64,000 bases of DNA from Candidatus Moranbacteria bacterium UBA4824 (GCA_002400405.1 DHFM01000046.1:11722-75721); one strand, 5' to 3'; counted from the first letter of the stretch, positions 6,082-60,628 are shown. Program-made: numbers and translations. Notes: generated from the sequence alone by a model not told the origin.

Positions 6082-6187
6082 TCAGAACCACTGATTATCA
6101 CATGAGCTCACTTGATTTCACTGAACAGAAATTTCATTCATGTGTAATCAGTATAATCAGTGCTAATCAGTGGTTCAGACATTTATG
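6079..6187. repeat. Repeat family D copy 1 (about 105-bp structured intergenic leader 'cagaaccactgattatcac...taatcagtggttcagacatttATG')
   Basis: Near-identical to 6584..6693, with 2 substitutions. Fills the whole intergenic space from the stop codon to the ATG of the next gene. Internal inverted repeats (aaccactgatta / taatcagtggtt). Confidence 0.7.
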
Positions 6188-6583: not shown

Positions 6584-6693
6584 ATAATCAGAACCACTGA
6601 TTATCACATGAGCTCACTTGATTTCACTGAACGGAAATTTCGTTCATGTGTAATCAGTATAATCAGTGCTAATCAGTGGTTCAGACATTTATG
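6584..6693. repeat. Repeat family D copy 2
   Basis: Direct repeat of 6079..6187, again running from a stop codon to the next ATG. Confidence 0.7.
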
Positions 6694-7379: not shown

Positions 7380-7445
7380 TTTACGAAAATACGAATCTAG
7401 CGAAAGTACGAATTCGTAATTTAGTTTAATTCGTATTTTCGTAAA
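7380..7445. repeat. Repeat family A copy (66-bp element with perfect 17-bp terminal inverted repeats tttacgaaaatacgaat/attcgtattttcgtaaa and central palindrome tacgaattcgta) separating the two VirB4 ORFs
   Basis: Terminal inverted repeats confirmed by reverse-complementing. Near-identical copy at 63549..63614. Related TACGAAT arrays at 21939, 37855 and 52368. Confidence 0.65.
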
Positions 7446-7468
7446 TAATAAAACACAAAAAAACATCC

Positions 7469-13379: not shown

Positions 13380-13385
13380 AAAATT

Positions 13386-13503
13386 TCCAAGTTTCAAGTT
13401 TCAATTTTCAATGAATTTTCAATATAAAAATTTTCAAAATTAAAGATATTGTAAATTGAAAATTAATCATTCACTGAAAATTGAGAATTGTAAATTGAAA
13501 ATT
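13386..13503. repeat. Repeat family C copy (inverted-repeat element, arms 'caagtttcaattttcaat' / 'attgaaaattga')
   Basis: Same arms as 2574..2673 and the half-copy at 2140..2180. Intergenic between the surface protein and the pilin gene. Confidence 0.6.
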
Positions 13504-13517
13504 AAAATAAAATTCCC

Positions 13518-15003: not shown

Positions 15004-16161
15004 ATGTCTACTCTCAAGAAAATATTCTTTCTTTCCCTTTTTATCTTTTTTCTTTCCCTGCTTTTTTGGGGAATTTATGTTTTGTCTTTTAAAAAAACCG
15101 AACCGACTAAAAATACTATTCTCCCGCTAAATAATTCCAATAGTAATTTAACTTTACCAGAAAAAATTTCCCCTGCCTCAAGCACACAAAAAATTTCCTT
15201 AGTCTCAAAGGAGCCTGTTATTTCCCCAACAATTTCATCTAATGGAGGAAATATTCGATACTACTCAACTTCCGGAGAACTGAAAGAAACTGATTTTTCC
15301 GGCAGTACTTCAAAAAAAATAACTGATAAAACTATTTTTGGCCTAATAAGCGGAGTTTGGTCACCGGACAAATCAAAAATTCTCCTAAAAACCAAAAAAG
15401 GCGCTAGTCCATATTTTTTGCTTTTTGACACCAAAACCAATCAGCTCACTATGCTCAACAGTAATATCAATGAAATTTCTTGGCAGACCATATCCTCTAA
15501 AATATTCTATAAGTATTTTGATTCAAATGGAAAAAAGAGCTCTCTAAATGTTTCTGATGCCAATGGGGAAAATTGGAAAAAAATAATTGACTTGCCTCAT
15601 GAAAAAATATCCTTTGCTCAAATTCCTCGTTCAGGACTGGTTTCTTTTTGGAATAATGGCGATGCTAATTATCAAACCAATCTTCAAACAGCCTCCCTTA
15701 TCGGAGAAGATATTAAAACTATCTACCAGAGCGGTTTTGGCGCTGATTATCTTTGGGATAATTCCGGCAATCATTGTTTGGTGAGTCAAACGGACACTAA
15801 GGGTGGCACAAAATTACAGCTTGGCATTATAAATTATAACGGCGAAGGCTACAAAATTCTTGGATTGCCTACGATTGTTTCAAAATGTACTTGGTCAAAA
15901 GACAATGCAACCATTTATTGTGCTCTTCCAGGAAACATTCCCGAAAATTCAATCTTGCCCAATGATTATAAGACTGGAAAATTTACCACTGTCGATACTT
16001 TTTGGAAAATTAACACTGATACTGGCGAAAAAACTCGTTTAGTAGAAACCAGCGACATCTCCCAAGACTTTGATGCTTCTGAATTTTTTCTCAATACCGA
16101 CGAAAGCTTGCTATTTTTTGTGAATAAAATAGATAAGAAGTTATATAAAATAATCCTTTAG
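15004..16161 (+). CDS. Membrane-anchored protein with TolB-like beta-propeller-like repeats
   Basis: 385 aa. N-terminal TM. Repeated segments reminiscent of TolB/WD-like blades (SWSPDKSKILL; SDANGENWKKI). Weak assignment. Confidence 0.3.
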   Translation: MSTLKKIFFLSLFIFFLSLLFWGIYVLSFKKTEPTKNTILPLNNSNSNLTLPEKISPASSTQKISLVSKEPVISPTISSNGGNIRYYSTSGELKETDFSGSTSKKITDKTIFGLISGVWSPDKSKILLKTKKGASPYFLLFDTKTNQLTMLNSNINEISWQTISSKIFYKYFDSNGKKSSLNVSDANGENWKKIIDLPHEKISFAQIPRSGLVSFWNNGDANYQTNLQTASLIGEDIKTIYQSGFGADYLWDNSGNHCLVSQTDTKGGTKLQLGIINYNGEGYKILGLPTIVSKCTWSKDNATIYCALPGNIPENSILPNDYKTGKFTTVDTFWKINTDTGEKTRLVETSDISQDFDASEFFLNTDESLLFFVNKIDKKLYKIIL

Positions 16162-16222
16162 CTTAACCTAAAAGAGAGCTTGCGCATTTGGATATATCGA
16201 GAGCTTACGTAGTTGACTCCAG

Positions 16223-16308
16223 CAGGTTCAATCGTCTCGATTGAAACGCATAGTTCTGATAATTTTTATATTCTGCCAGAAAATAAAAGTTCAGGCGAGA
16301 CGCCTGAA
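16223..16308. repeat. Repeat family B copy 1 (two hairpins ttcaatcgTCTCgattgaa and ttcaggcgAGACgcctgaa)
   Basis: Reverse complement of the copy at 21990..22081. Lies downstream of the 3' end of the glycosylation gene cassette. Confidence 0.65.
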
Positions 16309-16331
16309 ATTGCAAAGTACAAGCCCCGAAT

Positions 16332-17555
16332 TTATTTCAAAACCAAGAAATTCAACCAAAAAATAATCGCTAGATCATTCTTAAAATAAGTTGTGTCAAA
16401 AATTCCATGAATTAGAATGATTAGCATTATCCCAAGAGCCACGAATAAAACATCGTTAGGCTCTTTTTTTACCCTATGGAATAAATTTTGCTTTGTAAAA
16501 TTATCCCGCATAGCGGGATATTCCATAGGGTGAACCTCCCTGGAGACATCTCGCAAAAAGAAAAATGCCAAACCTAAAAAACCAACCATACCCATAATTC
16601 CGCCATAAAGCCACCAAGTTAAATATAAATTATTTGGATGTGGTACTGCCCATTCCAGATAGGGCGGATAGAATTTTTGATATTCCAGATATGTCTTTTG
16701 AAAATTCCCCGGTCCAATACCGAAAATAAAATTATCTTCAATTATTTTTACTGAAGCTTTCCAAATCATCATTCGAGAAGCTAATGAAGACCGAGAATTG
16801 GCTGTTAATAGATCAATCATCTTTTTGTTATTTAACTGCGAAAGAAAAAGCGCCAAAATTATTATTCCTATTATGGCTATTTTCTTGGAAATATTTTTAT
16901 TTTTTATTAAAACCAGAATTATAAGCGATGTTAGAATTGAAAACCAAGCCGAATAAGAGTAGGTAAGAAACAATACCATCACTATTGGAACAAAAAACAA
17001 AAAATATCCACTCTTAACTTTATTTTTTTGAAAAATGAAAATAACAATTGCCGGCGCCAAATACATTGCCAGATAATTTGGAGAGTTAAATATTCCAGCT
17101 AATCGATTATCATAAGTAAGAAAATTAGCCAAATAATATCCGCAAGAAATCAGTGCCACAAAAAACGCGGAAAAAAAATACGCCATAAAAATTCGATTTA
17201 TTTTCTCTTTTTCTATCACCTGCCAAGCGAGAAAAAATAGGATTAATGGCACTAAAAACCAACTTTTCACTATTCCCCAAGAAACTAAACTGTTTCCACT
17301 GAGAAAAGTTGAAAGCAATGTTCCAAAAAGCATTAAACTGCCAAAAATTATATAATTTTTATATCTAGAAAAAAATTCTTTGATTTTGATTTTTATTTTT
17401 TCCCTGTCAGTAAAAAACCAAAATAAAAAAATTACTCCGATTATTATTTCCAAAACATTAGTCGGCAAAAACCATAATTTTATCTTCACTAAATACAGCG
17501 GGATAAAAAACACCACCAAATAAATTAAATTTTCTAATATATTATTCTTTTTCAT
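16332..17555 (-). CDS. O-antigen ligase (Wzy_C) family membrane protein
   Basis: Polytopic. Motif PHPNNLYLTWWLYGGIMG matches the Wzy_C H.hN.yL...G signature. The ORF track extends to 17606. Internal ATG at 17555 preferred, giving a 14-nt overlap with the upstream gene. Confidence 0.55.
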   Translation of the reverse strand: MKKNNILENLIYLVVFFIPLYLVKIKLWFLPTNVLEIIIGVIFLFWFFTDREKIKIKIKEFFSRYKNYIIFGSLMLFGTLLSTFLSGNSLVSWGIVKSWFLVPLILFFLAWQVIEKEKINRIFMAYFFSAFFVALISCGYYLANFLTYDNRLAGIFNSPNYLAMYLAPAIVIFIFQKNKVKSGYFLFFVPIVMVLFLTYSYSAWFSILTSLIILVLIKNKNISKKIAIIGIIILALFLSQLNNKKMIDLLTANSRSSLASRMMIWKASVKIIEDNFIFGIGPGNFQKTYLEYQKFYPPYLEWAVPHPNNLYLTWWLYGGIMGMVGFLGLAFFFLRDVSREVHPMEYPAMRDNFTKQNLFHRVKKEPNDVLFVALGIMLIILIHGIFDTTYFKNDLAIIFWLNFLVLK

Positions 17556-18912
17556 AATGAGAAAAACGCGTAAGTCCGAAAAGCATAAGTAAAAGCGAAA
17601 GAACAATCGGAGAATAAAGACCAGTTTCCACCATTGAATGAGCTGAAAAGATAATCACACTTGTAAATATTCCAGCATAGATCATATCCTCCTTAGCCAA
17701 AATCCAAAAATTCCAAAGAGTTACGAGTAAAATAAAAATCCAAACTAAACTAGCTAAGATGCCTTGCTCAACAGCGATATCCAAATAAGTATTATGTGCA
17801 TAAATAGGATTACGATAATCAATCTTACCATCCACCGCCAAAGAAAAATTACCAATCCCTGTGCCAAACAAAGGCTTATGCTTGATTGTTTCTAAAGATT
17901 TTTGCCAAATGCTAATTCGTCCGGCGTTTGATCCTTCTTGCAAATCAAAACTAGAGTCAAATCGCTGTGAGACTGGCCCCGGGATAGTGAGCATTAAAAA
18001 AAGAAATATCACTGCCAAACTCGCCATTATTTTATGTTTTGTTTGTGTTTTATTCCAAAAAACAAGAATAAAAATTGTAATACCCGCTATAATCGCCAAA
18101 TATCCCCCTCGAGCAAAAGTCAATATATTTGCCAAAAAGATAGTCACAAAAGAAAGACCCCCGATAATTTTATTCTTTGAAATAAAAAACAATATCACCG
18201 AAATTGGTAGAATCATTCCCAAAAACAACGAGAAAGAGTGCGGATCAGGAAATGTTCCAATGGCACGAAAATAATTTTGTCCGGAAACGCCCACCAACCA
18301 ACTCGGATAATTCCTTACCATTTGCGTCAAATTTTCTCCCCAAAAAACCGGCCCGATAAAACTTAAATAGACTTTGAAAATTTCTTCATAATTCCAAATA
18401 AATTGCGAAAAAAATTGCACAATTCCGATAATTGCCACTATGGCACCAGCCCAAACCAAACTCGCTAGAGTCTTTATAACTTTTTCTTTGCTATTTAAAA
18501 TATCCTTGGTTATAAAATAAAGCGGGAAAATGGAGAATAAATAGGCTAGTTTTCTTACTGACCAAAAATAATTTTGAGCAAAAAACAAAGAAATGAAACT
18601 TAGAAACAAAAAAAACAAGATCAATTTTGTTTGCACATCAAAAATAAAGATGTTTTTTTTACCCCCACACCAACTAAACCAATTTCTTTCTTTTTTATCA
18701 AATTGTTCTTGCTCATCAATATTACTTAAATCATCGATTTTATTTTTGTTTAGTTGGTGTGGGGGTTTATTTTTAATTCTATCATAAACCCAAACAGAAA
18801 AAAGGATTAGAATAAAAATCCTTAAAGAAGCTAGATCAACCCCCTGCGCCGGATTAAGCGCAATTTGAAAAGGTAGATAAAAACATAACAATAAGAAAAA
18901 ATTAGATATCAT
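17542..18912 (-). CDS. O-antigen ligase (Wzy_C) family membrane protein
   Basis: 456 aa, polytopic. Motif YAHNTYLDIAVEQGILASL matches the Wzy_C signature. Confidence 0.6.
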   Translation of the reverse strand: MISNFFLLLCFYLPFQIALNPAQGVDLASLRIFILILFSVWVYDRIKNKPPHQLNKNKIDDLSNIDEQEQFDKKERNWFSWCGGKKNIFIFDVQTKLILFFLFLSFISLFFAQNYFWSVRKLAYLFSIFPLYFITKDILNSKEKVIKTLASLVWAGAIVAIIGIVQFFSQFIWNYEEIFKVYLSFIGPVFWGENLTQMVRNYPSWLVGVSGQNYFRAIGTFPDPHSFSLFLGMILPISVILFFISKNKIIGGLSFVTIFLANILTFARGGYLAIIAGITIFILVFWNKTQTKHKIMASLAVIFLFLMLTIPGPVSQRFDSSFDLQEGSNAGRISIWQKSLETIKHKPLFGTGIGNFSLAVDGKIDYRNPIYAHNTYLDIAVEQGILASLVWIFILLVTLWNFWILAKEDMIYAGIFTSVIIFSAHSMVETGLYSPIVLSLLLMLFGLTRFSHYEKE

Positions 18913-18916
18913 TATT

Positions 18917-19651
18917 TTATTTTTTAAACTGTCTTTTTATTAGATAATAAAAGGATGATTTAAAAAATTGAATTTTTTGTTTAATTAAGCTCTTTCTGCT
19001 CTTGCCTCCACTATGCAAAATAGTGAGCTCTGGGGAATATAAAATATCATACCCTAGCTCTCTTGCTTGAGCACACAAATCCATATCCTCTCCATACATA
19101 AAAAAATTTTCATCAAATCCTCCTATCTTGTCAAAAATATCCTTTTTGATAAACATCGCTGCTCCACTCACCCAATCAACGAAGATATCTTTTTTGCTTT
19201 CCCAAAAATATCGACTTTCTGTTATCCATAGATTATTTTTTATTATTTGAGTAAAGGTTGTTTCTTTGCCAGTACTCCATTCTTGCGTTTTTCCAGCATC
19301 AGTTACCAGCCTTGGACCTATTATAATAACCTTTTTATATTGTTTTATTTTAATTAGAATTTCTTTTATATAATTATCCATAAATTGAGTATCCGGATTC
19401 AAAAATAGGAAATTCTCTCCTTGAGCTTTTTGTGCCCCAAGATTACAAGCAGAACCAAATCCAATATTTTTTTTATTTTTATATAGTTTAACCCTTGAAT
19501 ATTTATCAACTAAGTCCGTCAAGTCCTCTTTTTGATCATTATTAACAATAATGATTTCAAAATCCTCATCAAAAGAATACTTGCTTATTGAAAACAAACA
19601 CTTATCTAAATATGCCTTACTGCGATAATTAACAATTATAATTGAGACCAT
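18917..19651 (-). CDS. Family-2 glycosyltransferase
   Basis: MVSIIIVNYRSKAYLDKCL...EIIIVNNDQKED...NIGFGSACNLG. GT2 DxD-type fold motifs. Confidence 0.7.
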   Translation of the reverse strand: MVSIIIVNYRSKAYLDKCLFSISKYSFDEDFEIIIVNNDQKEDLTDLVDKYSRVKLYKNKKNIGFGSACNLGAQKAQGENFLFLNPDTQFMDNYIKEILIKIKQYKKVIIIGPRLVTDAGKTQEWSTGKETTFTQIIKNNLWITESRYFWESKKDIFVDWVSGAAMFIKKDIFDKIGGFDENFFMYGEDMDLCAQARELGYDILYSPELTILHSGGKSRKSLIKQKIQFFKSSFYYLIKRQFKK

Positions 19652-19657
19652 TAAAAA

Positions 19658-20515
19658 TTAATTTATCTCTTTAAAATCTCTATATGCTTTTTGCACTGCT
19701 TCATTGATAGAATTTTTTTCTTTTTTTATATCTTTTCTATTTTTTATTTTTCTAAGTAATACATAGAAAAAAATCCAAGGACGAAGATACGCCGGAGAAT
19801 TTTTTTTGAAAAAAATCAGTCCTGACAACACCAACCAATAAATTTTATTAGTCTTTTTTTCTTGGCTTTTTTCAAGATGCCTAATTCGACTGCCCGCGCA
19901 AACTGCTAATTTATATCCAACCCTCTTAACTCTAACACTGAAATCCGCGTCCTCCCAGTATAAAAAATAATCTTCATCTAACAAGCCTACCTTCCTAAAA
20001 ACTTCTTTTCTAATTATCATCGCGCAACCCGTAATATAATCTGAATGAAAATAGTTTTCCTTTAGTTTATCTTTTTTATGCTCAGTTTTCATTTTAAACC
20101 AATTAATCTTTCCGCCCGAAAACCAGACATTCGAACTTTCTCCTTTTAAAATAATAGGACTAGCAATGCCAATTTTTTTGTCGTCCTCCATCATCTTAAC
20201 TAATGGCCAAAGAAAATCTTTTTCGACTATTGTGTCGTAATTTAAAAGTAAAATGTAGTCCGCCGAGCGCTCCAACGCATACTCAATGCCAATATTATTC
20301 CCAGCGGAAAAACCAAGATTCTCACTGTTTTTTATGCAAACTATTTTAGGAAAAACTCTGCGAACTAATTCCAGAGAGCCATCCTTGGAATTGTTATCCA
20401 CTAAAACTATTTCAAAATTAGGATAATCCACCTGAAAAACACTGGCGAGTGTTTTTCTTAAAAATTCTTGCCCGTTATAATTTAGAATTATTATAAAAAC
20501 TTTTGGTGTGCTCAT
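19658..20515 (-). CDS. Family-2 glycosyltransferase
   Basis: IIILNYNGQEFLRKTLASV...EIVLVDNNSKDGS...NLGFSAGNNIG. Canonical GT2 N-terminal domain. Confidence 0.75.
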   Translation of the reverse strand: MSTPKVFIIILNYNGQEFLRKTLASVFQVDYPNFEIVLVDNNSKDGSLELVRRVFPKIVCIKNSENLGFSAGNNIGIEYALERSADYILLLNYDTIVEKDFLWPLVKMMEDDKKIGIASPIILKGESSNVWFSGGKINWFKMKTEHKKDKLKENYFHSDYITGCAMIIRKEVFRKVGLLDEDYFLYWEDADFSVRVKRVGYKLAVCAGSRIRHLEKSQEKKTNKIYWLVLSGLIFFKKNSPAYLRPWIFFYVLLRKIKNRKDIKKEKNSINEAVQKAYRDFKEIN

Positions 20516-20518
20516 TTA

Positions 20519-21934
20519 TTATTTTTTACTGATTATACTGGCAATTTCCTCAATCTTAACTGCTTTAAATAACCAGATAAAAAGAATATAGACGGCTGTT
20601 GCTGAAAAAGCTAATAGAAAAAAATTGATCTTGGAAAAAATGAAAAAATAAATTGCCATAATAATTCCGGAAAAAACAATCGCCCAAAACTTTTCCACTT
20701 TTGGAAAATATTTTAAATCCTTAATTATCACATACAAAGTAGCCAGCGTTACAAAAAGCTCCGTCCCAACAGAAATTAAAGCTGAGGCCATATAGGAAAA
20801 CATTGGGATAAAAATTAGATTAGCGCTCACATTAAAAATCGCCGCTATCGCCATAATAATCATTAATTTTTTTTGCTTATTACCGGAAATTAAAACAATA
20901 TTAAAAAGATTACTAAAAAATATACAGCTCAAGGAAAAAACAAGGATTTGAAGAACCGTACTGGATGCAGAAAACCCCTTCCCACCAATAAGTTCTACAA
21001 TACCATCAGCAAGAAACATCGTTCCTACTATGAGAGGAATAACAAATAACCAAAAAACCTTGAAAGTCTTATTGGAGATATCCCAGAAACGCTTTCTGTC
21101 CGAAAAAATATTTTTTGATATAATTGGAAAAACCAATCCTACAATCATCGCCGGAAAGAAAGTGATATTTTCAATTACCTTGTAGGCTACGTTATATACT
21201 CCCACTTCTGCGCCAGTTTTCAAAACAGACAAAAGGATTGTATCTATTTTAAAGTAAATAAAACTAATGATTGCCGCAATTCCCAATGGATAAGACTCTT
21301 TTATGAATTTTTTCCAATAAGCTGTATCGAATTTCAAAGAAAAAGAAATATATTTTTTAGAAAAAAAGTATATTAAAGAAAAACTAATTATCATATTAAT
21401 AAGAAGCGAAACAATTATCCAAAGAAAGCTTAGGTTAAACTTTATAGCAAAAAAAATAAACAGCACCTGAATAACTTTTCCGGTTAATTCGGAAATTGCC
21501 ACTCGGTCCATAGCTAGATTTTTTTGAAATACCCCATTTAATACTTGATAGGAGGAAGAAAAAAGGAAAGCCAAGGCCACTATCATAATTGCTTGTTTAA
21601 CTTCCGTTGGATATGGAAAGAAAAAAACAATTATCGGCGATAATAACAAAACAATACTTGAAATAATTATACGTAAAGTAAAAATATTACCAATTATTTT
21701 CTTTTCATCAGCTCCTTCGCGAGAAATCTCCCGAGTAACTGTAGAATAAAGCCCAAGATCAGCAATGGCGGTGAAAAAAGATAAAAACGCCAACACTGTG
21801 GCGTAATTTCCAAATCCAACCTGTCCTAAATATCGAGTAATAAGCCCGATTGAAACTAAAGCTAAAATAGTTGAAAGAATTTTAGAAAAACTGCTAACTA
21901 AAACATTGTACGCGATTTTTCTTGCAATAACCAT
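20519..21934 (-). CDS. Wzx-like polysaccharide flippase (MOP superfamily)
   Basis: 471 aa with about 12-14 hydrophobic helices. Position is in the glycosyltransferase/ligase cassette. Confidence 0.6.
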   Translation of the reverse strand: MVIARKIAYNVLVSSFSKILSTILALVSIGLITRYLGQVGFGNYATVLAFLSFFTAIADLGLYSTVTREISREGADEKKIIGNIFTLRIIISSIVLLLSPIIVFFFPYPTEVKQAIMIVALAFLFSSSYQVLNGVFQKNLAMDRVAISELTGKVIQVLFIFFAIKFNLSFLWIIVSLLINMIISFSLIYFFSKKYISFSLKFDTAYWKKFIKESYPLGIAAIISFIYFKIDTILLSVLKTGAEVGVYNVAYKVIENITFFPAMIVGLVFPIISKNIFSDRKRFWDISNKTFKVFWLFVIPLIVGTMFLADGIVELIGGKGFSASSTVLQILVFSLSCIFFSNLFNIVLISGNKQKKLMIIMAIAAIFNVSANLIFIPMFSYMASALISVGTELFVTLATLYVIIKDLKYFPKVEKFWAIVFSGIIMAIYFFIFSKINFFLLAFSATAVYILFIWLFKAVKIEEIASIISKK

Positions 21935-21938
21935 ACAC

Positions 21939-21978
21939 TTACGAATTACGAATTAGTACGAATGTACGAATTACGAAT
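21939..21978. repeat. Repeat family A copy (tandem TACGAAT units: ttacgaattacgaattagtacgaatgtacgaattacgaat) immediately 5' of the wzx start
   Basis: 33 of its bases are identical to 52368..52400. Begins 5 nt from the wzx start codon. Confidence 0.6.
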
Positions 21979-21989
21979 AATACACATTA

Positions 21990-22081
21990 CAGGTTCAGGC
22001 GTCTCGCCTGAATCGCATAGCTCTTACTAATAAAATTATTTTTTCAGAAACATCACGGTTCAATCGAGACGACTGAACCTG
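21990..22081. repeat. Repeat family B copy 2 (inverted orientation relative to 16223..16308)
   Basis: Reverse complement of copy 1 matches hairpin for hairpin. Confidence 0.65.
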
Positions 22082-22128
22082 CATAATAATTCGAGTTAAT
22101 TTCGAAAAAAATAATTCTTTAATCGGCG

Positions 22129-22617
22129 CTAAGCCAAGTTAGCTGGCTTAATTACCACCCGCCTATCTTCTCCTTCGCCGATACTTTCAGTTTGAATTTG
22201 ATCATTTTTAGCCAGTTCCATATGCACAAGCCTTCTTTCATAGGGCGACATTGGTCGCATCACGATTGCACGTCCTTCGCGAAGAGCTGTTTCGGACATA
22301 TTTTTTGCCAGAGCAAAAACAGATTCATTTTTTTCTTGTCGATAAGAATTAACATCTAAGGTAAAATTGGCTTTGTTTTCCGTTTTTCCACGAAAAATTA
22401 TTCTGGCCATATGTTGCAAGGCCTGAAGATTCACTCCATATTGTCCGATTAGATAACTTGATTCTTCTGTTTTAATATTAAAAACTAATTCTTCCTGCTC
22501 TTGATTTTGGGTTTCTATAATCTCAACCTCACAAGAAAATCCCATTTTTAAAACTAATTCTTCAATAGCTTTTTTTATCTCTTCTTTTATTTCTGGCGTT
22601 ATATTCTCGTTTTCCAT
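22129..22617 (-). CDS. jag: Jag/KhpB RNA-binding protein (KH + R3H domains)
   Basis: Conserved Jag N- and C-terminal motifs (LIGQYGVNLQALQHMARII; ERRLVHMELAKNDQIQTES). Position downstream of yidC. Confidence 0.75.
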   Translation of the reverse strand: MENENITPEIKEEIKKAIEELVLKMGFSCEVEIIETQNQEQEELVFNIKTEESSYLIGQYGVNLQALQHMARIIFRGKTENKANFTLDVNSYRQEKNESVFALAKNMSETALREGRAIVMRPMSPYERRLVHMELAKNDQIQTESIGEGEDRRVVIKPANLA

Positions 22618-22631: not shown

Positions 22632-23393
22632 TTAACTATTAGTCTTTTCTTTTTCTAATACTTTCGTCTGCTGAATTATAGCAAAAATCGTTGAAACAAG
22701 CCAATAGAGAGCCAGGCCGGCCGGAAATTTTATCCCAATAAACAAGGTCAGAATCGGCCCAAGATACATCATTTGTTTTGACATTATCTGCGACATATCC
22801 GGCTGAGCATTTTTATTTTGCACAGCCATCTTAGGTATCATCATCTTTATTTGCACATATTGAGCCAGAGCTGCCAAAACAATAAGAATTATTTGAGGAA
22901 CAACTCTAATATTTAACTGACTAAAGTCAATAGTTTTGGAAAGATCAATAATTCCCAAGAAATATTGATTAATTTGTCCTGGGTTTGAAATAAATGAATA
23001 TAATTCTTTTGGATCTACCAGTAATCCTGCCTTAGAAATATTAAATAATACTTGGTAGATAGCAATTAGAAAAATAAGTTGGAAAATTGTGGGCAAGCAA
23101 CCAGAAAAAGGGTTAGTTTTATTTGTTTTATAAAATTCCATCAAGGCTCGGCTTTGCTTTTCCTTATCATTTTTATGTTTTTCTTGAATTTCCTTGATTT
23201 TTGGTTGCATTTCCTGCATTTTTTTCTGCGACTGAATTTGCTTTTTACTCAGTGGGATTAAAAGAAACTTCAAAACCAAAGTCACCACAATGATCGCTAT
23301 GCCGAAATCATGTAGTGGGATAATATTATAAATAAAGATAAGAAAGTTATAAATTGGCCTATAAACAGTTTCCCCAAATAAAAAAGATATCAT
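22632..23393 (-). CDS. yidC: YidC/Oxa1-family membrane protein insertase (short form)
   Basis: KKMQEMQPKIKEIQEKHKNDKEKQSRALMEFYKTNKTNPFSGCLP is the canonical YidC loop. Polytopic. Confidence 0.8.
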   Translation of the reverse strand: MISFLFGETVYRPIYNFLIFIYNIIPLHDFGIAIIVVTLVLKFLLIPLSKKQIQSQKKMQEMQPKIKEIQEKHKNDKEKQSRALMEFYKTNKTNPFSGCLPTIFQLIFLIAIYQVLFNISKAGLLVDPKELYSFISNPGQINQYFLGIIDLSKTIDFSQLNIRVVPQIILIVLAALAQYVQIKMMIPKMAVQNKNAQPDMSQIMSKQMMYLGPILTLFIGIKFPAGLALYWLVSTIFAIIQQTKVLEKEKTNS

Positions 23394-23411: not shown

Positions 23412-23753
23412 TTATATTAGTTTTGCTTTTTTTAATACTTCCAAAAGACTGTTTTTCAACTCTTGACTGGAAAATTCTTTTTTAGTCTTTTTTTTCACAG
23501 AAATCACCGCGTCATAACCTTTTTTGATATTTTTTATCTCTTTTCTGACTATTTCTCGTAATTGACGCTTTATTCTGTTTCTTACTACAGCCTTAGGGGA
23601 GAATTTAATTCCAATAGAAAAGCCTATTCGGGTTTTTTTAAGATTATTCTCCCTTATTTTCAAAAAAATATCCTCGGAAGAAAAAGAACCGCCAAAGCGA
23701 TAGACTAATTCAAAATCTTTTGCTTCTAAGAGTCTGTTTTCAACAGGAAGCAT
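23412..23753 (-). CDS. rnpA: Ribonuclease P protein component
   Basis: MLPVENRLLEAKDFELVY...RNRIKRQLRE signature. The shorter start at 23753 avoids overlap with rpmH. The ORF-track long form to 23816 was rejected. Confidence 0.75.
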   Translation of the reverse strand: MLPVENRLLEAKDFELVYRFGGSFSSEDIFLKIRENNLKKTRIGFSIGIKFSPKAVVRNRIKRQLREIVRKEIKNIKKGYDAVISVKKKTKKEFSSQELKNSLLEVLKKAKLI

Positions 23754-23757
23754 AAAT

Positions 23758-23892
23758 TTATACTGATAGTTTTTTTCGACCAGCCTGTCTTCTTCTTTTG
23801 AGGACAGCTTTCCCATTTTTAGTGCTGTTTCTTTCGATAAAACCGTGTCTTTTTTTTCTTCGACCTGCTTTTGGTTGGTATGTTACGCTCAT
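23758..23892 (-). CDS. rpmH: 50S ribosomal protein L34
   Basis: [44 protein letters not shown] is near-consensus L34. Internal ATG of ORF 23758..23949. Confidence 0.8.
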
Positions 23893-24115: not shown

Positions 24116-25492
24116 ATGACCAACGAGGAACTTTGGCAAACAGCCCTTGGAGAAATAGAGCTTTCTATTTCTAAGGCTAATTTTATCACTTGGTTTAAAA
24201 ACACCTCTATTCTTTCCCTTAAGGACGGCCATGTAGTTATTGGTGTTCCTAATGGTTTTGCCAAAGAATGGCTAGAAAACAAATACGATCTCTATATTTT
24301 ACGCGCCCTAAAAAATATTCAGGGTGATATCAAGTCTGTTTCTTGTATAATTTCCTCCGAACAAATTCAAAATTTTCCACAAACCACTAAGGAAATCACC
24401 GTGGATGCAGTGCAAGCGCCAAAAAAATCAACTGTTTTTTATGAAAAAAAGCCTCTGATAAGCCAAGAAAATAATTTAAATCAAAAATATACCTTTGAAA
24501 ATTTTGTTATCGGGGGTAGTAATGAACTAGCTCGCGCCGCTTGCTATGCTGTCTCAAAAAGCCTTGGTAATGTCTATAATCCGCTATTTATCTATGGTGG
24601 AGTAGGATTAGGAAAAACTCACCTCATTCAATCTATTGGCAATGAAGCCCTAAAAATAAACCCTCAAACTCGAGTGAAATATATTTCTTCTGAAAGATTT
24701 ACCAGTGATTTGATAAATTCGATAAAAACTCAAAAAATTCAAGAATTTAAAGAATATTATCAAAAAATAGACCTACTTATTATTGATGATATTCAATTTA
24801 TCTCAGGAAAAGAGAAGACTCAAGAGGAGTTTTTCCATATTTTCAATTATCTCTACCAACTTAATAAACAAATAGTCCTTTCTAGTGATCGTGCCCCAAA
24901 AGCCATTCAAATTCTTGAAGAGAGACTACGCTCACGCTTTGAAGGAGGGATGATTGCTGATGTTTCTAAGCCCGATCTTGAAACAAGACTTGCTATTCTT
25001 AAGATAAAAGCCGCCCAAAATAGAGTAGAGATCACTGAAGAAGCCCTGGAATTTATCGCTACTAACATTAAAAATAATATACGCGAGCTTGAAGGAGCCT
25101 TAAATAGAGTATCCGTGAGTGCCCAACTTACTAAAAAATCTCTAGATTCAGCTTATACAAAGCAAATTTTATCCGATATTATCTCAAGTGGCAAGAAAAA
25201 AGGAGTTAATTATAAACATATACTAAAGGCCGTTTCTGATTTTTATGAAATATCTCCCGCTGATTTAGTAGCTAAAAACAGAAAAAGAGAGGTAGTAAAA
25301 CCCCGTCAAATAGCGATGTTTCTTATGAGAACTGAACTTTCTTTCTCTTACCCAGGAATTGGCGATAAATTAGGTGGGCGAGATCATACTACCGCTATTC
25401 ATGCTTATGAGAAAATTTCTGAAGCTCTAAAATTTGATGAAAGGCTCAATGAAGAATTAGTTCAAATTAAAGATATTCTACACACTATATAG
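24116..25492 (+). CDS. dnaA: Chromosomal replication initiator DnaA
   Basis: AAA+ Walker A (GGVGLGKTHL). Box VII. C-terminal DNA-binding domain (RQIAMFLMRTELSFSYPGIGDKLGGRDHTTAIHA). Confidence 0.95.
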   Translation: MTNEELWQTALGEIELSISKANFITWFKNTSILSLKDGHVVIGVPNGFAKEWLENKYDLYILRALKNIQGDIKSVSCIISSEQIQNFPQTTKEITVDAVQAPKKSTVFYEKKPLISQENNLNQKYTFENFVIGGSNELARAACYAVSKSLGNVYNPLFIYGGVGLGKTHLIQSIGNEALKINPQTRVKYISSERFTSDLINSIKTQKIQEFKEYYQKIDLLIIDDIQFISGKEKTQEEFFHIFNYLYQLNKQIVLSSDRAPKAIQILEERLRSRFEGGMIADVSKPDLETRLAILKIKAAQNRVEITEEALEFIATNIKNNIRELEGALNRVSVSAQLTKKSLDSAYTKQILSDIISSGKKKGVNYKHILKAVSDFYEISPADLVAKNRKREVVKPRQIAMFLMRTELSFSYPGIGDKLGGRDHTTAIHAYEKISEALKFDERLNEELVQIKDILHTI

Positions 25493-25779
25493 TTAATTTC
25501 CTGCATAACCTGTGGATAAATATACTATAAACATCCTTATAACTATGTGCCTAGAATATTAAGAATCCTGTTTTTAATCTGAAATATTTCTAAAATATAT
25601 TTTTATTAAATAAATTATACCCCCTATAAAACACTCCATAAAAACACTTATCCAGTTATTATCCACACATATTTAGTTTTATATAAAGCAAAAAACAAGC
25701 TTATCCACTATTATTTTACTCTCTAATAATAGTAATAACATTATATTATTAATAATAAATTAAATACTAAATAAAAAAT
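25493..25779. other. oriC: dnaA-dnaN intergenic DnaA-box cluster plus AT-rich unwinding region
   Basis: tgtggataa (25511, reverse-complement box), ttatccagt (25648), ttatccaca (25658), ttatccact (25701). Then an AT-only stretch at 25741-25779. Gene orientation switches here (minus to the left, plus to the right). Confidence 0.7.
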
Positions 25780-26937
25780 ATGAAATTAATTTGTACAGGA
25801 GAAAATTTAAAGAAAGCAGTTTTTAATTGTGAAAGAGTAGTTTCAAAGAAAAATACTCTTCCTATACTAAATAATATTCTTTTTGAAACAGAAAAAGGAG
25901 GGTTAAAATTATCTGCGACTAATTTAGAAATTGGAGTTTCTTCTAAAATTGGAGCAAAAATAGAAAAAGAAGGGCGAATAACTATTCCCGCAAAACTAAT
26001 TAGTAATTTTTCTAATAATCTTTCGGGTAATGAAAATATCTCCCTTGAACTTGTAGATAATAATTTAAAAATAAAAAGTGGGATAAATAAAGCTATAATA
26101 AAAGGAATTTCTGCAGAAGATTTTCCTCTTTTACCTCTTCGAAAAACCGAATATCTATTAGATATACCTATATTAAATTTAAAAATGGCTATTTTAAAAG
26201 TTATGCCAGCAGTAGCTTTTAATGAATCACGTCAAGAACTTACCGGAATTAATCTTATTTTAAGAGAAAAAGAACTCATTTTTGCTGCTACAGATAGTTT
26301 TCGTCTTTCAGAATGTCAGATTAAGTTAAATGAAATTGATAAAAATATTGAAAATTACAATATTTTTATTGAAAAAAATGAAAATGTTATTATTCCCGCA
26401 AATGTTTTAGTGGAGTTAAATCGGATATTAGCGTCGGATGCAAATAATAAAGTAAAAATAACTATTGAAGAGGGACAAATATTTTTTGAAGTAGATGGTA
26501 TTAAATTAGTCTCACGGCTTATAAATGGGAAATATCCTGAATATAAACATATAATGCCGGCGGAATATAAAACGAGAATAGTGGGAGAAAAACAGATTTT
26601 GCAAAATGCTATTAGGATGGCAAGTGTTTTTTCCTTAAGTGGATCAAATGAGATAACGCTCAAAATTAACCAAGAAGAAGGAAAAATTTTTATACTATCT
26701 TCCAGTGCTGAAGTTGGGGAAAACTCAACTGAACTTAAATTTGACATTACAGGACCATCTCAGGAAGTTGTTTTTAATGCTAAATATCTTTTAGATGGAA
26801 TTAATGCTACTACCACTTCCCAAGTGGCAATTTTGCTAAACAGCGAAGCTACGCCTGTGGCAGTTCGTGAAATAAATGAAAAATCCGGAGAGGTTTTGGA
26901 AGATTTTACCTATATTGTGATGCCGATAAAAAACTAA
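25780..26937 (+). CDS. dnaN: DNA polymerase III beta sliding clamp
   Basis: 385 aa, three-domain beta-clamp pattern. Conserved position after dnaA. Confidence 0.9.
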   Translation: MKLICTGENLKKAVFNCERVVSKKNTLPILNNILFETEKGGLKLSATNLEIGVSSKIGAKIEKEGRITIPAKLISNFSNNLSGNENISLELVDNNLKIKSGINKAIIKGISAEDFPLLPLRKTEYLLDIPILNLKMAILKVMPAVAFNESRQELTGINLILREKELIFAATDSFRLSECQIKLNEIDKNIENYNIFIEKNENVIIPANVLVELNRILASDANNKVKITIEEGQIFFEVDGIKLVSRLINGKYPEYKHIMPAEYKTRIVGEKQILQNAIRMASVFSLSGSNEITLKINQEEGKIFILSSSAEVGENSTELKFDITGPSQEVVFNAKYLLDGINATTTSQVAILLNSEATPVAVREINEKSGEVLEDFTYIVMPIKN

Positions 26938-26940
26938 AAA

Positions 26941-26970
26941 CATGAAACATATAGCATGAAACATGAAACA
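26941..26970. repeat. Repeat family F half-copy (catgaaacatatagcatgaaacatgaaaca) overlapping the trxB start
   Basis: Same catgaaacatgaaaca core as 44197..44275 and 54430..54503. Encodes the MKHETE N-terminus of trxB. Confidence 0.5.
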
Positions 26971-28145: not shown

Positions 28146-28775
28146 ATGAATTATATTGAATTTAGGCAAAAAATGGAGGAATTTCCGCTTTTTAGCACAA
28201 AAGAATTGCGATTAATTTTGGGAGCTGAATTTAAGCGGTCATTTCTGAATAATCTGGAAAATTGGAAGAAAAAAGAGTATCTTTTGCAACTCAGAAAAGG
28301 CTTATATTTACTGGGTTATCTAAAACATGCAGTCGATCCAATGATTTTGGCTTCAAAGATTTATGCGCCTTCCTATGTGAGCCTAGAAACGGCCTTGGGG
28401 TATTATGGAATTATTCCAGAAGCGGTTTTCACCACCACCTGCGTGACCAGTCGAGAAACAAAAGATTTTTTCAATGATTTTGGAAAATTTACTTTTCGCA
28501 AAATTAAAAAAACAGCTTTTGGTGGATATGAAACAATTCAAAAAAGAGAATTCGGAATTTCATTTAATTTGGCTTTGCCGGAAAAGGCCTTGGTGGATTT
28601 TTTTTATCTGAATAAGAATATTTTAGATGGTAGTCAGCTTCAATTTGAGAGTTATCGATTCAGTGATGATTTTAGATATGATAAAAATAAACTGATGAGA
28701 TTTGCCAAAGCTTTTGAGAATAAAAAAGTTTTGGAATTAACTAATAATTTTATTAAATTTTATGTTGCCGGATAA
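28146..28775 (+). CDS. AbiEi-like antitoxin / transcriptional regulator (wHTH)
   Basis: 209 aa. The LRKGLYLL motif resembles the AbiEi R-G-Y signature. Immediately upstream of, and overlapping, an AbiEii-like nucleotidyltransferase. Confidence 0.5.
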   Translation: MNYIEFRQKMEEFPLFSTKELRLILGAEFKRSFLNNLENWKKKEYLLQLRKGLYLLGYLKHAVDPMILASKIYAPSYVSLETALGYYGIIPEAVFTTTCVTSRETKDFFNDFGKFTFRKIKKTAFGGYETIQKREFGISFNLALPEKALVDFFYLNKNILDGSQLQFESYRFSDDFRYDKNKLMRFAKAFENKKVLELTNNFIKFYVAG

Positions 28776-29559
28776 AAAATATTTTAGGGATTATTGTCAA
28801 GAGAAAAACATTCCTTGGCGAGAAAGAGATATTCTGAGAGAATATTTGCAAACGCAAATTCTCAAAGTTCTTTCAATGAGTGAATTTAATGACGCAGTTT
28901 CTTTTCTAGGCGGGACTAGTCTGCGTTTTATTCATAATATCGAAAGATTCTCTGAGGATTTGGATTTTGATTTATTGAAAAAAGAAAATTTTGATATCAA
29001 TCAAATGGGCAAAGAGATTGCTGGAAAGCTGGAGCTTTTAGGATTTAGTTTGGATACAAAAATCAAGACGACAGACAATATTTATATTATTTATTTTAAA
29101 TTTAAGAACGTTTTGCAAGAATTTGGGTTTAATGTTCAGGAGAATGAAAAAATAACTATCAAATTCGAAATTGATTTTGATCCATATAAAAATATCAAAT
29201 TTGAAACAAAATTTGTGGATAGTTTTGGAGAAAGATTTCCAATTTTGATTAATACTTTACCCACGCTTTTTGCGCAAAAAATTATCGCTCTGAAATTTAG
29301 ACCCTATCAAAAAGGGCGGGATTTCTATGATCTAGTTTGGTTTTTGGCGCAAAAAAACATCGAGCCAAATTATGCAATTTTTAAGGAGAAAAATATCGAT
29401 GTAAAAAACAAAAAAGAATTAATTATTGAGCTTGAAAAAATTATTTCCGCTTCTAATTTAGAACAAGCGATTAAAGATGTTTCACCTTTTATTTTCCAAA
29501 GCGAACAAGCTAAATGGATTTTAAGTTTACCAGAATTTATGAAAAATTTTAAAGAGTAA
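28762..29559 (+). CDS. AbiEii/AbiGii-family nucleotidyltransferase toxin (DUF1814)
   Basis: LGGTSLRFIHNIERFSEDLDFDL nucleotidyltransferase motif. C-terminal region (RPYQKGRDFYDLVWFL). Confidence 0.65.
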   Translation: MLPDKKYFRDYCQEKNIPWRERDILREYLQTQILKVLSMSEFNDAVSFLGGTSLRFIHNIERFSEDLDFDLLKKENFDINQMGKEIAGKLELLGFSLDTKIKTTDNIYIIYFKFKNVLQEFGFNVQENEKITIKFEIDFDPYKNIKFETKFVDSFGERFPILINTLPTLFAQKIIALKFRPYQKGRDFYDLVWFLAQKNIEPNYAIFKEKNIDVKNKKELIIELEKIISASNLEQAIKDVSPFIFQSEQAKWILSLPEFMKNFKE

Positions 29560-30035: not shown

Positions 30036-30291
30036 AACTTCTGTGTTTTTGTGGAAAATCATAAAGGAACTTTTAATTAAAGCAAAAATTAAACTTATCC
30101 ACCACACTATTTATTGTAGAGCCTTTTTATTTTGCTGATTTTAAAAAATATTGTATAATAAAAAAAGAAAAAAACAACCCCATGGAATACGGATGTGTAA
30201 AATAATGATAAATAAAAATAAATTCAATTTACAAAATCATTTTATATACATTGTAAAATTATTCCACGGGGTAAAAAATAAAAAATTTATT

Positions 30292-39559: not shown

Positions 39560-40231
39560 TTATAACATTTTTTTAAGCGTTTGTGGAGTGTAGTCAATTC
39601 TTAGCAATTTGTCAATCGAAGGAATGTTTATTCGGAATTTCTCAACATCGTGCTTAAAATCTTTTTCTATTAAAAATAATATAACTTTATCGCCGAAATC
39701 TTTCTTTATAGCATTTACATTCTCTTTGGCTTTAAAGAAAGTATCTACAAAAACGTCTTTAGTTATTCGACGTCCTTCTATTTCTTCTCGTGCTTTTGTA
39801 AATTCCCAAGCGATTTTTGGATCTTGATAGAGATAGAAAATAGCTACAAGTCTATGATGATCAAGTGCGCGCGATATATTTTTTCTAGCAACACCAATAC
39901 TTGATAGAGTTCCATCTATAATGGCGTCATATTTTTTATGTATTATATGATCATATAAAATTTCAACACCCTTACTGCAAGCCGATTGAAATAGGTGCGA
40001 GTTTGATCCTGTGTAATCTGGAAATAATTCTCTGATTTCATCAGCATCAATTCTAACTAGAGGTTTCTTGAGTATTTCTATTAAGTTTTTTGAGAATTCT
40101 GTTTTTCCAGCACCAGGAGATCCAGCCATAAAAATAGTTGCAGGAATTTTTTTCGATTCGTAAATAGCCGGATTGGCAAATTTTTGAATCAAAATCTTTT
40201 TATTAGACTTGATATATTCAACGGGGTTCAT
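39560..40231 (-). CDS. Zeta-toxin-family P-loop kinase-like protein
   Basis: 223 aa. Walker A FMAGSPGAGKTEF. Layout RIDADEIR...DAIIDGTL consistent with zeta/UNAG-kinase-like fold. Confidence 0.5.
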   Translation of the reverse strand: MNPVEYIKSNKKILIQKFANPAIYESKKIPATIFMAGSPGAGKTEFSKNLIEILKKPLVRIDADEIRELFPDYTGSNSHLFQSACSKGVEILYDHIIHKKYDAIIDGTLSSIGVARKNISRALDHHRLVAIFYLYQDPKIAWEFTKAREEIEGRRITKDVFVDTFFKAKENVNAIKKDFGDKVILFLIEKDFKHDVEKFRINIPSIDKLLRIDYTPQTLKKML

Positions 40232-44191: not shown

Positions 44192-44196
44192 AAGAT

Positions 44197-60627: not shown

Positions 60628-60628
60628 T

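Follow-up and report, generated by a model that had tools for sequence, protein, structure and literature searches.

The locus

The window analysed here, a single stretch of 64,000 nt from Candidatus Moranbacteria bacterium UBA4824 (GCA_002400405.1 DHFM01000046.1:11722-75721), carries on its minus strand a five-gene glycosylation operon, and Pfam confirms the gene content read from the sequence in the original prediction (two Wzy_C, two GT2, one Wzx flippase). Specifically, a Wzx-type flippase (Polysacc_synt; 20519-21934) is the first gene, followed by GT2 glycosyltransferase a (19658-20515), GT2 glycosyltransferase b (18917-19651), Wzy_C a (O-antigen ligase/polymerase-like; 17542-18912) and, as the final gene, Wzy_C b (16332-17606). 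Upstream lies jag/KhpB (KH + R3H; 22129-22617, minus strand), the last member of an rnpA-yidC-jag unit that adjoins dnaA. The TACGAAT array noticed earlier on the 5' side of the cassette is present as about five ATTCGTA heptamers on the minus strand (21939-21978, TRF), directly upstream of the flippase ATG. The array is near-identical in two relatives that lack the element described below (L034 and L019), and on this comparison it is ancestral to the locus and separate from the element.

Both ends of the operon bear a copy of a short non-coding element. Element A (16222-16315, plus strand, 94 nt) lies between the convergent stop codons at 16161 and 16332, and element B (21987-22082, minus strand, 96 nt) between the jag stop (22129) and the flippase start (21934). 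The repeats first placed at 16223..16308 and 21990..22081 are thus real and inverted, but their true borders, taken from alignment with copies in other genomes, are slightly wider. Element A consists in order of GCAGG, hairpin H1 (16227-16245, TTCAATCG-TCT-CGATTGAA), an AT-rich spacer with a TTCTG/CAGAA stem, hairpin H2 (16290-16308, TTCAGGCG-AGA-CGCCTGAA) and ATTGCAA. Read on the minus strand, element B consists of GCAGG, H1 (22077-22059, TTCAGTCG-TCT-CGATTGAA, with one G.T pair), a spacer, H2 (22012-21994, TTCAGGCG-AGA-CGCCTGAA) and CCTGTAA. Each element contains two perfect 8-bp hairpins, TTCAnnCG-TCT-CGnnTGAA and TTCAGGCG-AGA-CGCCTGAA. Exact TTCANNCGTCTCGNNTGAA hairpins occur at 16227-16245 (+), 16290-16308 (-), 21994-22012 (+) and 22059-22077 (-) and nowhere else within the 64 kb; with up to three mismatches, there are 10 matches against 1.24 expected, a number reached in none of 100 shuffles.

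A covariance model scores element A best on the plus strand (94.1 bits versus 64.7 on the other strand) and element B best on the minus strand (91.4 versus 60.5), which indicates that the two copies are mutually inverted. The earlier description of "the same element" at both ends holds in that both copies belong to one family and lie inverted, but they are only about 75% identical and represent two subtypes: element A is a mosaic copy with a type-A 3' linker, whereas the linkers of element B are type-B. Across the family, elements are 92-97 nt long with sharp borders, GCAGG...C(C/T)TGCAA, and their terminal GCAGGTTCAnnCGTCTCG and CGAGACGCCTGAAC(C/T)TGC are complementary. H1 and H2, hairpins of 8-10 bp, are inverted relative to each other and the TTCTG/CAGAA stem is kept in the spacer. 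The entire element folds into one long hairpin. Both copies fold far better as RNA than shuffled sequences (z-scores of -7.0 for B and -3.8 for A). At gathering score, Rfam matched nothing in the window, and there is no tRNA; at a permissive threshold, the only matches were miRNA-precursor-type hairpins, far under their cut-offs.

Adjoining element B is a remnant of a second, unrelated palindromic family (family 2): a 34-nt left arm (22090-22123, minus strand) identical at 34/34 positions to 10495-10528 of L032, where a complete family 2 element, about 175 nt long, occupies the corresponding jag-flippase spacer. Family 2 also fills this spacer in L014.

The operon in relatives

In five relatives (Jag identity 94-70%), the operon has the same five genes in unchanged order, with jag on one side and the same convergent neighbour on the other, and no element lies at either end. 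The orthologous convergent junction, where element A sits in the window, measures only 1-36 nt and is element-free in all five. Identity to the closest relative continues without a break across B (jag 94%, flippase 87%) and across A (Wzy_C 64%, neighbour 69%). Among the orthologues in L014, identity is 87% for the flippase, 82% for GT2 a, 68% for Wzy_C a and 64% for Wzy_C b. GT2 b has 44% identity to its positional counterpart in L014, L018 and L019; judged by these alignments, it is the sole operon gene replaced relative to the relatives, and it is internal and not delimited by the repeats.

These data contradict the initial suggestion of a recombination-prone, swappable cassette, and they describe an operon that belongs to the core of the clade and has descended vertically, rather than a mobile or swappable island. 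Copies of the element furthermore occur at unrelated intergenic sites (Pth|MgsA, aaRS|NIF3, aminotransferase|Mur ligase), which is largely the finding that had been named in advance as one that would speak against this suggestion. That the elements could be recombination sites (invertase, integron-like or Xer-like) for inverting or exchanging the 5.7-kb module is barely credible, even though they are arranged in inverted orientation around a surface-polysaccharide module in which one gene has been replaced. Besides the syntenic, element-free operons and the unbroken identity, the two copies differ in subtype and are only some 75% alike; the Pfam-annotated genes of the 79.6-kb contig include no recombinase or integrase apart from a Y1 transposase, which lies 40 kb off with other cognate hairpins; all three or four independent assemblies of the strain have the same orientation; and copies in other genomes are solitary and unpaired. 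Sites of the attC, pdif or invertase kind are likewise imperfect palindromes at module edges, and pdif modules have their sites in inverted orientation. Unlike them, the element has no integrase or invertase nearby and lacks an attC-type R/L core (GTTRRRY), relatives conserve the module without such sites, and the copies elsewhere stand alone.

The family in other genomes

Copies were found in at least four other MAGs (L004/L007/L011, L005, L009=L013 and L012), with a divergent one in L006. Those elsewhere occupy unrelated intergenic sites whose flanks have no homology, and all nine copies are located between ORFs. Element B matches the Moranbacteria CG23 copy (L009/L013) at 92% identity, again with flanks that have no homology, and element A is 83.5% identical to that in L005; identity between genomes thereby exceeds that between A and B within this genome. 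The source contig (79.6 kb) holds two copies and about 300 kb of relatives' DNA holds none, and a search for the exact two-hairpin pattern gave only 1-3 per representative genome.

One orthologous site, the aminotransferase|Mur-ligase spacer, exists in three states with flanking DNA about 95% identical: empty, with a 4-nt spacer, in L027; filled by the element and flanked by a 15/15 direct target duplication, ATGAAATTTTTTTGC (p ~0 in shuffles), in L012; and filled by a different palindromic element, family 2, in L028. The L012 insertion carries about 22 nt beyond the conserved element, and the closely related genomes behind L012 and L027/L005 have their copies at different loci. None of the other seven of eight copies has a target duplication above chance, and 15 bp is unusual. 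Among the loci examined, neither an autonomous element nor a transposase shares the ends of the family. The one Y1_Tnp gene observed, which is RAYT-like (61932-62600), is single-copy and conserved in position; another hairpin, CCTAAAGC-nnn-GCTTTAGG, lies at its flanks and also within it, and TTCAnnCG hairpins flank it neither here nor in Moranbacteria CG23.

As a separate observation, copies adjoin envelope-glycan genes more often than expected and keep one orientation whenever they lie upstream of a gene. Six of eight canonical copies are within or beside envelope glycan or peptidoglycan gene clusters, and all six copies between co-directional genes share the same strand orientation relative to transcription.

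Comparison with known repeat families

REPINs consist of two inverted short palindromes around a spacer whose sequence varies while the hairpin is kept (PMC3337134). The element resembles REPINs and BIMEs, whose REP pairs are moved by RAYT Y1 transposases, in its length of about 90-100 nt, inverted palindromes, hairpin-keeping spacer, single long hairpin and extragenic, non-coding position, and the genome, as in REP-RAYT systems, has a single-copy RAYT-like gene at a conserved position. However, REPINs number tens to hundreds of copies, compared with 1-3 exact-pattern matches per genome for the element, and the RAYT-like gene here is associated with the other hairpin. REPINs are also described as vertically inherited (10.1101/2022.05.22.493013), whereas the element is more alike between genomes than within this one. 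The 15-bp target duplication in L012 is a further difference; single-strand transposition of the IS200/RAYT type is not known to produce one.

Bacterial MITEs, such as Correia elements in Neisseria, ERIC/IRU, RUP and BOX, are non-coding sequences, roughly 100-150 nt long, whose ends are inverted repeats around an AT-rich core; they insert between genes, vary in presence among strains, can nest and can carry terminator- or promoter-like signals. The element similarly stays below the MITE limit of about 300 bp and is non-coding, with complementary ends, variable presence at orthologous sites and nesting in another repeat. Unlike Correia elements, which have a constant short TA duplication, it shows no short constant duplication among the eight copies compared, and it differs from MITEs in general in that no parent insertion sequence with its ends is known, its terminal repeats each form a perfect hairpin on their own and copy number is very low.

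Origin and possible functions

Taken together, A and B are probably copies of a REPIN/MITE-like, non-autonomous, non-coding insertion element of nested palindromes and low copy number. Its membership of a family, sharp borders, variable presence at orthologous sites, one target duplication and an operon conserved without it are all matters of direct observation. Built of two inverted short palindromes, a variable hairpin-forming spacer and fixed ends, it has probably entered intergenic spacers of Moranbacteria-type (CPR) genomes sporadically, moving perhaps as single-stranded or cruciform DNA with the aid of a transposase encoded elsewhere. Because A and B belong to different subtypes, they point to two independent insertions, one at either end of a Wzx-GT2-GT2-Wzy_C-Wzy_C operon that is old and was inherited vertically; copy B would have landed within a palindromic element already present there, now seen as the family 2 remnant. 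The inserted hairpins may act in a terminator-like or insulating way on the transcript at the operon boundaries, which may explain why both insertions were retained. The low copy number, the single duplication in eight copies with its unusual length, the extra 22 nt or so in L012, the lack of an autonomous element or transposase sharing the ends, and the different hairpins of the RAYT-like gene count against this reading. If placement among about 80 spacers were random, two independent insertions flanking one operon would be unlikely. Insertion at both ends, the bias towards envelope genes and the uniform orientation together hint at selection or targeting beyond pure selfish mobility.

Three further explanations concern function. 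One, which we consider rather unlikely, is that the elements are kept mainly as paired terminators or insulators at operon boundaries and that their spread is secondary; element B would then block read-through from rnpA-yidC-jag, and element A would end both the glycan operon and its convergent neighbour. In favour of this, one hairpin of each element (22079-22057, 10 bp; 16308-16290, 8 bp, then CTTTTATTTT) accounts for the two highest-ranking terminator-like matches on the transcribed minus strand of the 13-kb region. Like intrinsic bidirectional terminators, the hairpins have GC-rich stems of 8-10 bp and 3-nt loops, and element A, with its T-tract, sits between convergent stops, as does the L005 copy between convergent genes. 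On the minus strand, CTTTTATTTT after H2 of element A is a proper T-tract facing the operon, and the GTGATGTTTC of element B is a weak one. In L018 the gap between jag and the flippase is 16 nt, so that the two are probably co-transcribed there, while in the window element B separates them. In the sense direction, however, neither the individual hairpins nor the whole long hairpin are directly followed by a T-tract in any copy, and in four of four contexts that are co-directional type-A or type-A-like, the single canonical hairpin with a T-tract points against transcription. The L012 copy, moreover, entered a formerly tight 4-nt operon junction where a terminator would be polar, and the five relatives do without elements, also at the same junction. 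Conservation of sequence across unrelated loci and genomes, paired hairpins and fixed outer ends are likewise unlike an intrinsic terminator. Terminator or insulator structures were the second possibility raised in the original prediction, and such a side-effect of the inserted elements is nonetheless plausible.

It is decidedly improbable that the element is instead a cis-acting leader, mobile promoter or processing signal, transcribed in sense upstream of envelope-glycan operons, as it might be by loose analogy with JUMPstart/ops or EAR leaders. In several genomes it does lie shortly before the start of polysaccharide-related genes: its co-directional downstream genes are the Wzx operon, RmlC-RmlB, a Mur ligase, Wzy_C-GT4, DUF4012 (after GT4) and NIF3, five of six envelope-related and all six in the same orientation, and in L013 it ends about 8 nt ahead of the rmlC ATG. 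In 8/8 copies, G.U pairs make the sense strand fold more stably than the antisense by 2-8 kcal/mol, but this asymmetry stems from the same H1/H2 difference in every copy and is not independent evidence. Five of eight copies have a -35-like TTGAAC in the H1 3' arm and, 17-18 nt further on, a -10-like hexamer; this pairing, read by eye from the alignment, has low specificity in AT-rich DNA, and promoter-like matches are no commoner than in shuffles. Five relatives have no element ahead of the orthologous flippase operon, and L027 has none ahead of the orthologous Mur ligase; two copies lie between convergent genes with no downstream gene, L006 scores best in the opposite orientation, and the covariation counts fit RNA structure and a plain DNA palindrome equally. 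In contrast to JUMPstart/ops and EAR, it contains no ops-like motif recognisable by eye and is a palindromic insertion of varying presence, not conserved upstream of orthologous operons. Least compatible with the data among these three, and highly improbable, is a role for the hairpins as operators in double-stranded DNA, bound by a dimeric regulator, with a spacing of the paired sites that would permit looping. Every site is a perfect palindrome, site centres are 63 bp apart in A and 65 bp in B (about six helical turns, and similar in other copies), and several TrmB-family regulators are encoded in the window. Yet the two variable stem positions co-vary on both half-sites (AT/AT, AG/CT, AC/GT, GG/CC), as expected of a hairpin or of palindrome self-correction and not of operator bases that are uncontacted; the complementary outer ends GCAGG/CCTGC and the hairpin-forming spacer would have no role, and orthologous promoters lack the element.

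Implications

CPR/Patescibacteria have reduced genomes that are usually considered repeat-poor, and to our knowledge small mobile repeats have hardly been described in them; a literature search found no description of the element sequence, nor of MITEs or REPINs in CPR/Patescibacteria. The element is as such previously undescribed in the Moranbacteria lineage, although the REPIN/MITE kind is already known. For annotation, inverted repeats around an operon are tempting, yet this operon is core and not a mobile island. If the link to envelope glycans is true, the elements could be one way in which episymbiont-type bacteria tune their surface structures. A bolder possibility, which we regard as unlikely, is that the element is not just selfish DNA but a REPIN-like module that spreads horizontally and is preferentially kept, in a single orientation, at CPR envelope-glycan and cell-wall operon boundaries, where it would serve as a portable insulator, promoter or RNA-processing signal. 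Surface-glycan expression would then be re-wired strain by strain, and the 15-bp duplication would point to an unusual integration mechanism that is not of the IS200/RAYT type. At this locus, at least two palindromic insertion families appear to compete for the same intergenic hot spots, beside a RAYT-like gene with hairpins of its own.

A probable two-hairpin insertion family at both ends of a glycan operon

The repeats at either end of the Wzx-GT2-GT2-Wzy_C-Wzy_C operon are best interpreted as low-copy palindromic insertions of REPIN/MITE-like type, members of a family in Moranbacteria-type genomes that had not been described before. The organism is placed in Candidatus Moranbacteria (CPR/Patescibacteria) by its Jag homologues, and the operon region adjoins the replication-origin gene set, with rnpA (23412-23816), yidC (22632-23393) and jag/KhpB (22129-22617) on the minus strand and dnaA (24116-25492) and dnaN (25780-26937) on the plus strand. 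Directly downstream of jag, Pfam identifies five minus-strand genes that match the cassette content of the original prediction, namely a Wzx-type flippase (20519-21934), two GT2 glycosyltransferases, GT2a (19658-20515) and GT2b (18917-19651), and two Wzy_C proteins (17542-18912 and 16332-17606). A convergent hypothetical gene (15004-16161, plus strand) abuts the operon's 3' end. Repeated CTTATCCAC-containing motifs that resemble DnaA boxes (25676-25712, 30070-30106 and 30965-31001) surround dnaA-dnaN and recur further downstream, as expected close to an origin. Neither the window nor the element-bearing loci contain a tRNA or tmRNA.

The exact sequence TTCANNCGTCTCGNNTGAA occurs four times in the 64 kb (16227, 16290, 21994 and 22059) and nowhere else; with three mismatches permitted, 1.2 hits are expected by chance. 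Alignment with copies from other genomes reveals that each hairpin pair is part of a 94-96-nt unit with sharp ends, which places element A at 16222-16315 (sense strand plus) and element B at 21987-22082 (sense strand minus). A covariance model scores each of them about 30 bits better on its own sense strand than on the opposite one, thereby confirming the inverted arrangement that had been proposed. On the sense strand, the unit reads GCAGG; hairpin H1 (TTCA-nn-CG TCT CG-nn-TGAA); a linker, an AT-rich spacer with a TTCTG(G)/(C)CAGAA stem and a second linker; hairpin H2 (TTCAGGCG AGA CGCCTGAA); and C(C/T)TGCAA, its ends including the arms being GCAGGTTCANNCGTCTCG (5') and CGAGACGNNTGAAC[CT]TGC (3'). 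H2 and the outer ends are invariant among copies, and the inner two stem positions of H1 differ from those of H2 in every copy. A and B are only about 75% alike and represent two subtypes distinguished by their linkers; B shares 92% identity with a Moranbacteria CG23 copy, and A 83.5% with one from MAG JAURXY01.

Rfam gave no family at gathering score for the window as a whole, nor at E<=10 for the two spacers, the hairpin sequences do not occur in a full-text literature search, and the 60 nt left of A (16162-16221) match nothing among the compared loci. A role as a restriction site was also considered and rejected: CGTCTC lies in both hairpins, yet it is not avoided across the window (10 sites versus a median of 14 for hexamers of the same composition).

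Copies in other genomes and evidence for insertion

That further copies might exist beyond this locus had been raised in the original prediction, and they do. Searching one representative genome for each species with the core of both hairpins identified six true loci, besides two matches in high-GC DNA that are due to chance. The true loci lie on three contigs of MAG CAYLWX01, in JAURXY01, in Moranbacteria CG23 and, in divergent form, on a contig assigned to a Cloacimonadota bin. JGI metagenomes added only two loci, and searches of viral contigs (two patterns), plasmids and phages matched nothing. Similarity between these loci and the window at the DNA level is confined to the element. All copies are intergenic, and their neighbours are varied: GT4/unknown|DUF4012, unknown|Wzy_C-GT4, aaRS|NIF3, the convergent pair Pth|MgsA, Ddl-aminotransferase|Mur ligase, and a site upstream of rmlC-rmlB. 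The repeats are a family and not private to the glycan operon. MAG CAYLWX01 is labelled Bdellovibrionales, but it carries the same AATTTTC heptamer arrays as the window.

Three versions of the aminotransferase|Mur-ligase spacer were observed, their flanks being about 95% identical in nucleotide sequence. The spacer is empty in L027, a contig of the same MAG as the JAURXY01 locus L005 (...TTTATAA-AAAT-ATGAAATTTTTTTGCAAAAC...); it holds the two-hairpin element in L012, a locus from another genome (...TTTATAA-AAACC-ATGAAATTTTTTTGC-GTC-[96-nt element]-AGGAATGACAAATAACACT-ATGAAATTTTTTTGC-AAAAC...); and in L028-L031 it is filled by a different palindromic element of about 150 nt, which starts TCACTGAAGAAC... 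and ends ...GTTCTTCAGTAG. Shuffled sequences never match the 15-nt direct duplication of L012; such a target duplication is seen in one of eight copies. The L012 and L027/L005 genomes are close relatives that carry the two-hairpin element at different loci.

A second, unrelated family of palindromic elements (family 2), about 150-190 nt long, with ends (G)TCACTGAAGAA.TTAAATTTTTTTC... and ...TTCTTCAGT, folds as a long hairpin (RNA fold z -7.7) and fills the same two intergenic sites as the two-hairpin element in other genomes. It has copies in L014 (10523-10695), L032 (10495-10670) and L028 (3003-3160), and in L014 and L032, both from relatives of the window, it occupies the jag-flippase spacer. 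Between the jag stop codon and B, the window retains a remnant (22090-22123) that is identical at 34 of 34 positions to the left arm of the L032 copy, which indicates that B sits in the remains of an earlier family 2 insertion. The jag-flippase and aminotransferase|Mur-ligase spacers are hot spots, repeatedly hit by different palindromic insertions.

In L012 (11820-11968), the duplication puts a second Mur-ligase start codon upstream of the element, and this duplicated start opens a 15-codon ORF (MKFFCVAGSIVSIEP*) that runs into H1. L011 (1857-1869, TTCAGGCGAGAC) and the CG23 locus L013 (63-74, AATCGAGACGCC) carry single-hairpin fragments that are separated from full copies by between a few and about 100 nt and may be decayed earlier insertions. 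In L005 (5262-5395), another long inverted repeat (CCACCCCATAAAATAAAGAA...TTCTTTATTTTATTTGGGTGG) directly adjoins the two-hairpin element within a 680-nt non-coding spacer.

Cassette exchange, boundary function or mobility

The original prediction offered two readings of the flanking repeats, a swappable surface-glycan cassette or paired terminators or insulators. Exchange between the repeats is contradicted by comparison with five relatives (Jag identity 94% for L014/L015, 81% for L018, 74% for L019, and 70% for L032/L033 and L034/L035). All five share the order jag-Wzx-GT2-GT2-Wzy_C-Wzy_C; beyond it come the convergent hypothetical gene seen in the window, pilin-like genes and an SLT gene. 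None has the element at either operon boundary; the convergent junction in these genomes measures 1-36 nt, and 16-271 nt of other sequence make up the jag-flippase spacer. Furthermore, amino-acid identity between the window and L014 shows no step at A or B (jag 94%, flippase 87%, GT2a 82%, GT2b 44%, Wzy_C 68% and 64%, neighbouring hypothetical gene 69%, pilin 68%). The core operon therefore predates the elements, which the window's lineage acquired around it, and its only replaced gene is the internal GT2b. The TACGAAT array noted on the cassette's 5' side is present upstream of the flippase (21939-21978); it is nearly identical in L034 and L019, both without the element, and is ancestral. GT2b (minus strand) is 44% identical to its positional counterpart in three relatives versus 82-87% for its neighbours, and shorter (244 aa versus 260-272 aa), which looks like a single-gene replacement within a conserved glycan operon.

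Terminator or insulator action, the second reading, is possible but not proven. When terminator-like sites are ranked on the transcribed minus strand of the 13-kb region, the top two fall within the elements: H1 of B immediately follows jag, and A's H2, in reverse complement, immediately follows the last Wzy_C and precedes CTTTTATTTT. A predicted boundary or terminator effect is accordingly reasonable for this locus. Such an effect is not general to the family: no copy has a T-tract after a hairpin in the sense direction, and in co-directional contexts the sole canonical hairpin with a T-tract points against transcription. Promoter hexamers within the element are suggestive, but indistinguishable from AT-rich background.

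Both elements fold far better than shuffled sequence (z -7.0 for B, -3.8 for A). The usual minimum-energy fold is one long hairpin formed by H1-H2 pairing, each arm also being a perfect local hairpin. By pair counting, this long hairpin and a cloverleaf, in which a closing stem encloses three local hairpins (H1, the central stem and H2), both reach 97% pairing. Compensation is seen once, as U:A to G:C at columns 11/19, in three copies that all come from one MAG. Pairing and covariation cannot separate the two folds, nor prove RNA to be the selected form, the copies being too few and too conserved to distinguish the models. In each of the eight copies, folding of the sense strand is favoured over that of the antisense strand by 2-8 kcal/mol, owing to G.U pairs that arise from the inner-stem difference between H1 and H2; this counts as a single shared feature and not as eight separate lines of evidence.

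Selfish mobility does not account for two regularities: gene clusters for envelope glycans or the cell wall contain or adjoin six of the eight canonical copies, and all six copies between co-directional genes have the same orientation relative to transcription. Candidate explanations are that polar orientation is counter-selected, that the elements are retained as portable promoters or insulators, or that they would survive preferentially in fast-evolving surface loci. Random insertion among the contig's roughly 80 spacers is also unlikely to have put a different subtype at each end of one operon, a post-hoc observation.

Relation to known elements

REPINs consist of two inverted short palindromes around a sequence-variable spacer kept as a hairpin, about 90 nt in all (PMC3337134). 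The two-hairpin element shares the palindromes, the hairpin-keeping variable spacer and the size, but differs in its low copy number and in one insertion with a 15-bp duplication, for which a generic MITE description fits better than strict REPIN membership. No parent element was found in the loci compared.

The window does encode a RAYT-like Y1 (IS200-type, HUH) transposase (61932-62600, plus strand; Pfam Y1_Tnp E 1.5e-7, HUH motif), syntenic in the CG23 locus L024 (TrmB...Y1_Tnp-Fpg-DUF3048-holA). A different hairpin, TTTCCTAAAGC-nnn-GCTTTAGGAA, occurs on both sides of this gene and also within it; associated hairpins (TCTTTCCTAAAGC-nnn-GCTTTAGGAAG) lie at 60628-60654, 61895-61921, 62127-62153 and 62600-62626, and L024 keeps all three, the internal one included, with compensatory stem changes. 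Since this hairpin and that of the CG23 orthologue differ from the element's and co-vary with the gene, the transposase was rejected as the evident mobiliser. One of its hairpins is in frame within the gene, a further copy lies away from it in L028/L029 (at ~5387), and the transposase has more than 3,600 homologues, mostly in CPR.

Other repeats in the window

Many intergenic spacers carry short heptamer arrays, often as an inverted pair, the heptamer differing between spacers: AATTTTC/TGAAAAT (2138-2166, 2571-2673, 13382-13508), TACGAAT/ATTCGTA (also 7382-7446, 52368-52400, 63548-63636), CATGAAA/TTTCATG (26938-26970, 44197-44275, 54436-54501) and TAATCAGTGA (6145-6172, 6651-6678, 48645-48678). 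Where an ATTCGTA-type array precedes the flippase operon, a VirB4/TraC-like ATPase gene (7469), a PilB-like ATPase gene (52363, minus strand) or a DUF3048 gene, it stops right at the start codon. Arrays are conserved in relatives and present in other element-bearing MAGs (L011, L013), and may represent operator/promoter architecture or AT-rich terminators.

Other direct and inverted repeats of 50-140 nt (6066-6187/6572-6693, 95%; 38378-38515/40268-40405, 87%; 39216-39269/40884-40937, 87%; 48250-48379/49221-49350) lie near T4SS-like genes (PrgI, TraC-like) and a toxin-antitoxin-rich stretch with Zeta toxin (39560-40231), Fic (40934-42019) and AbiEii (28762-29559 and 43478-44254) genes.
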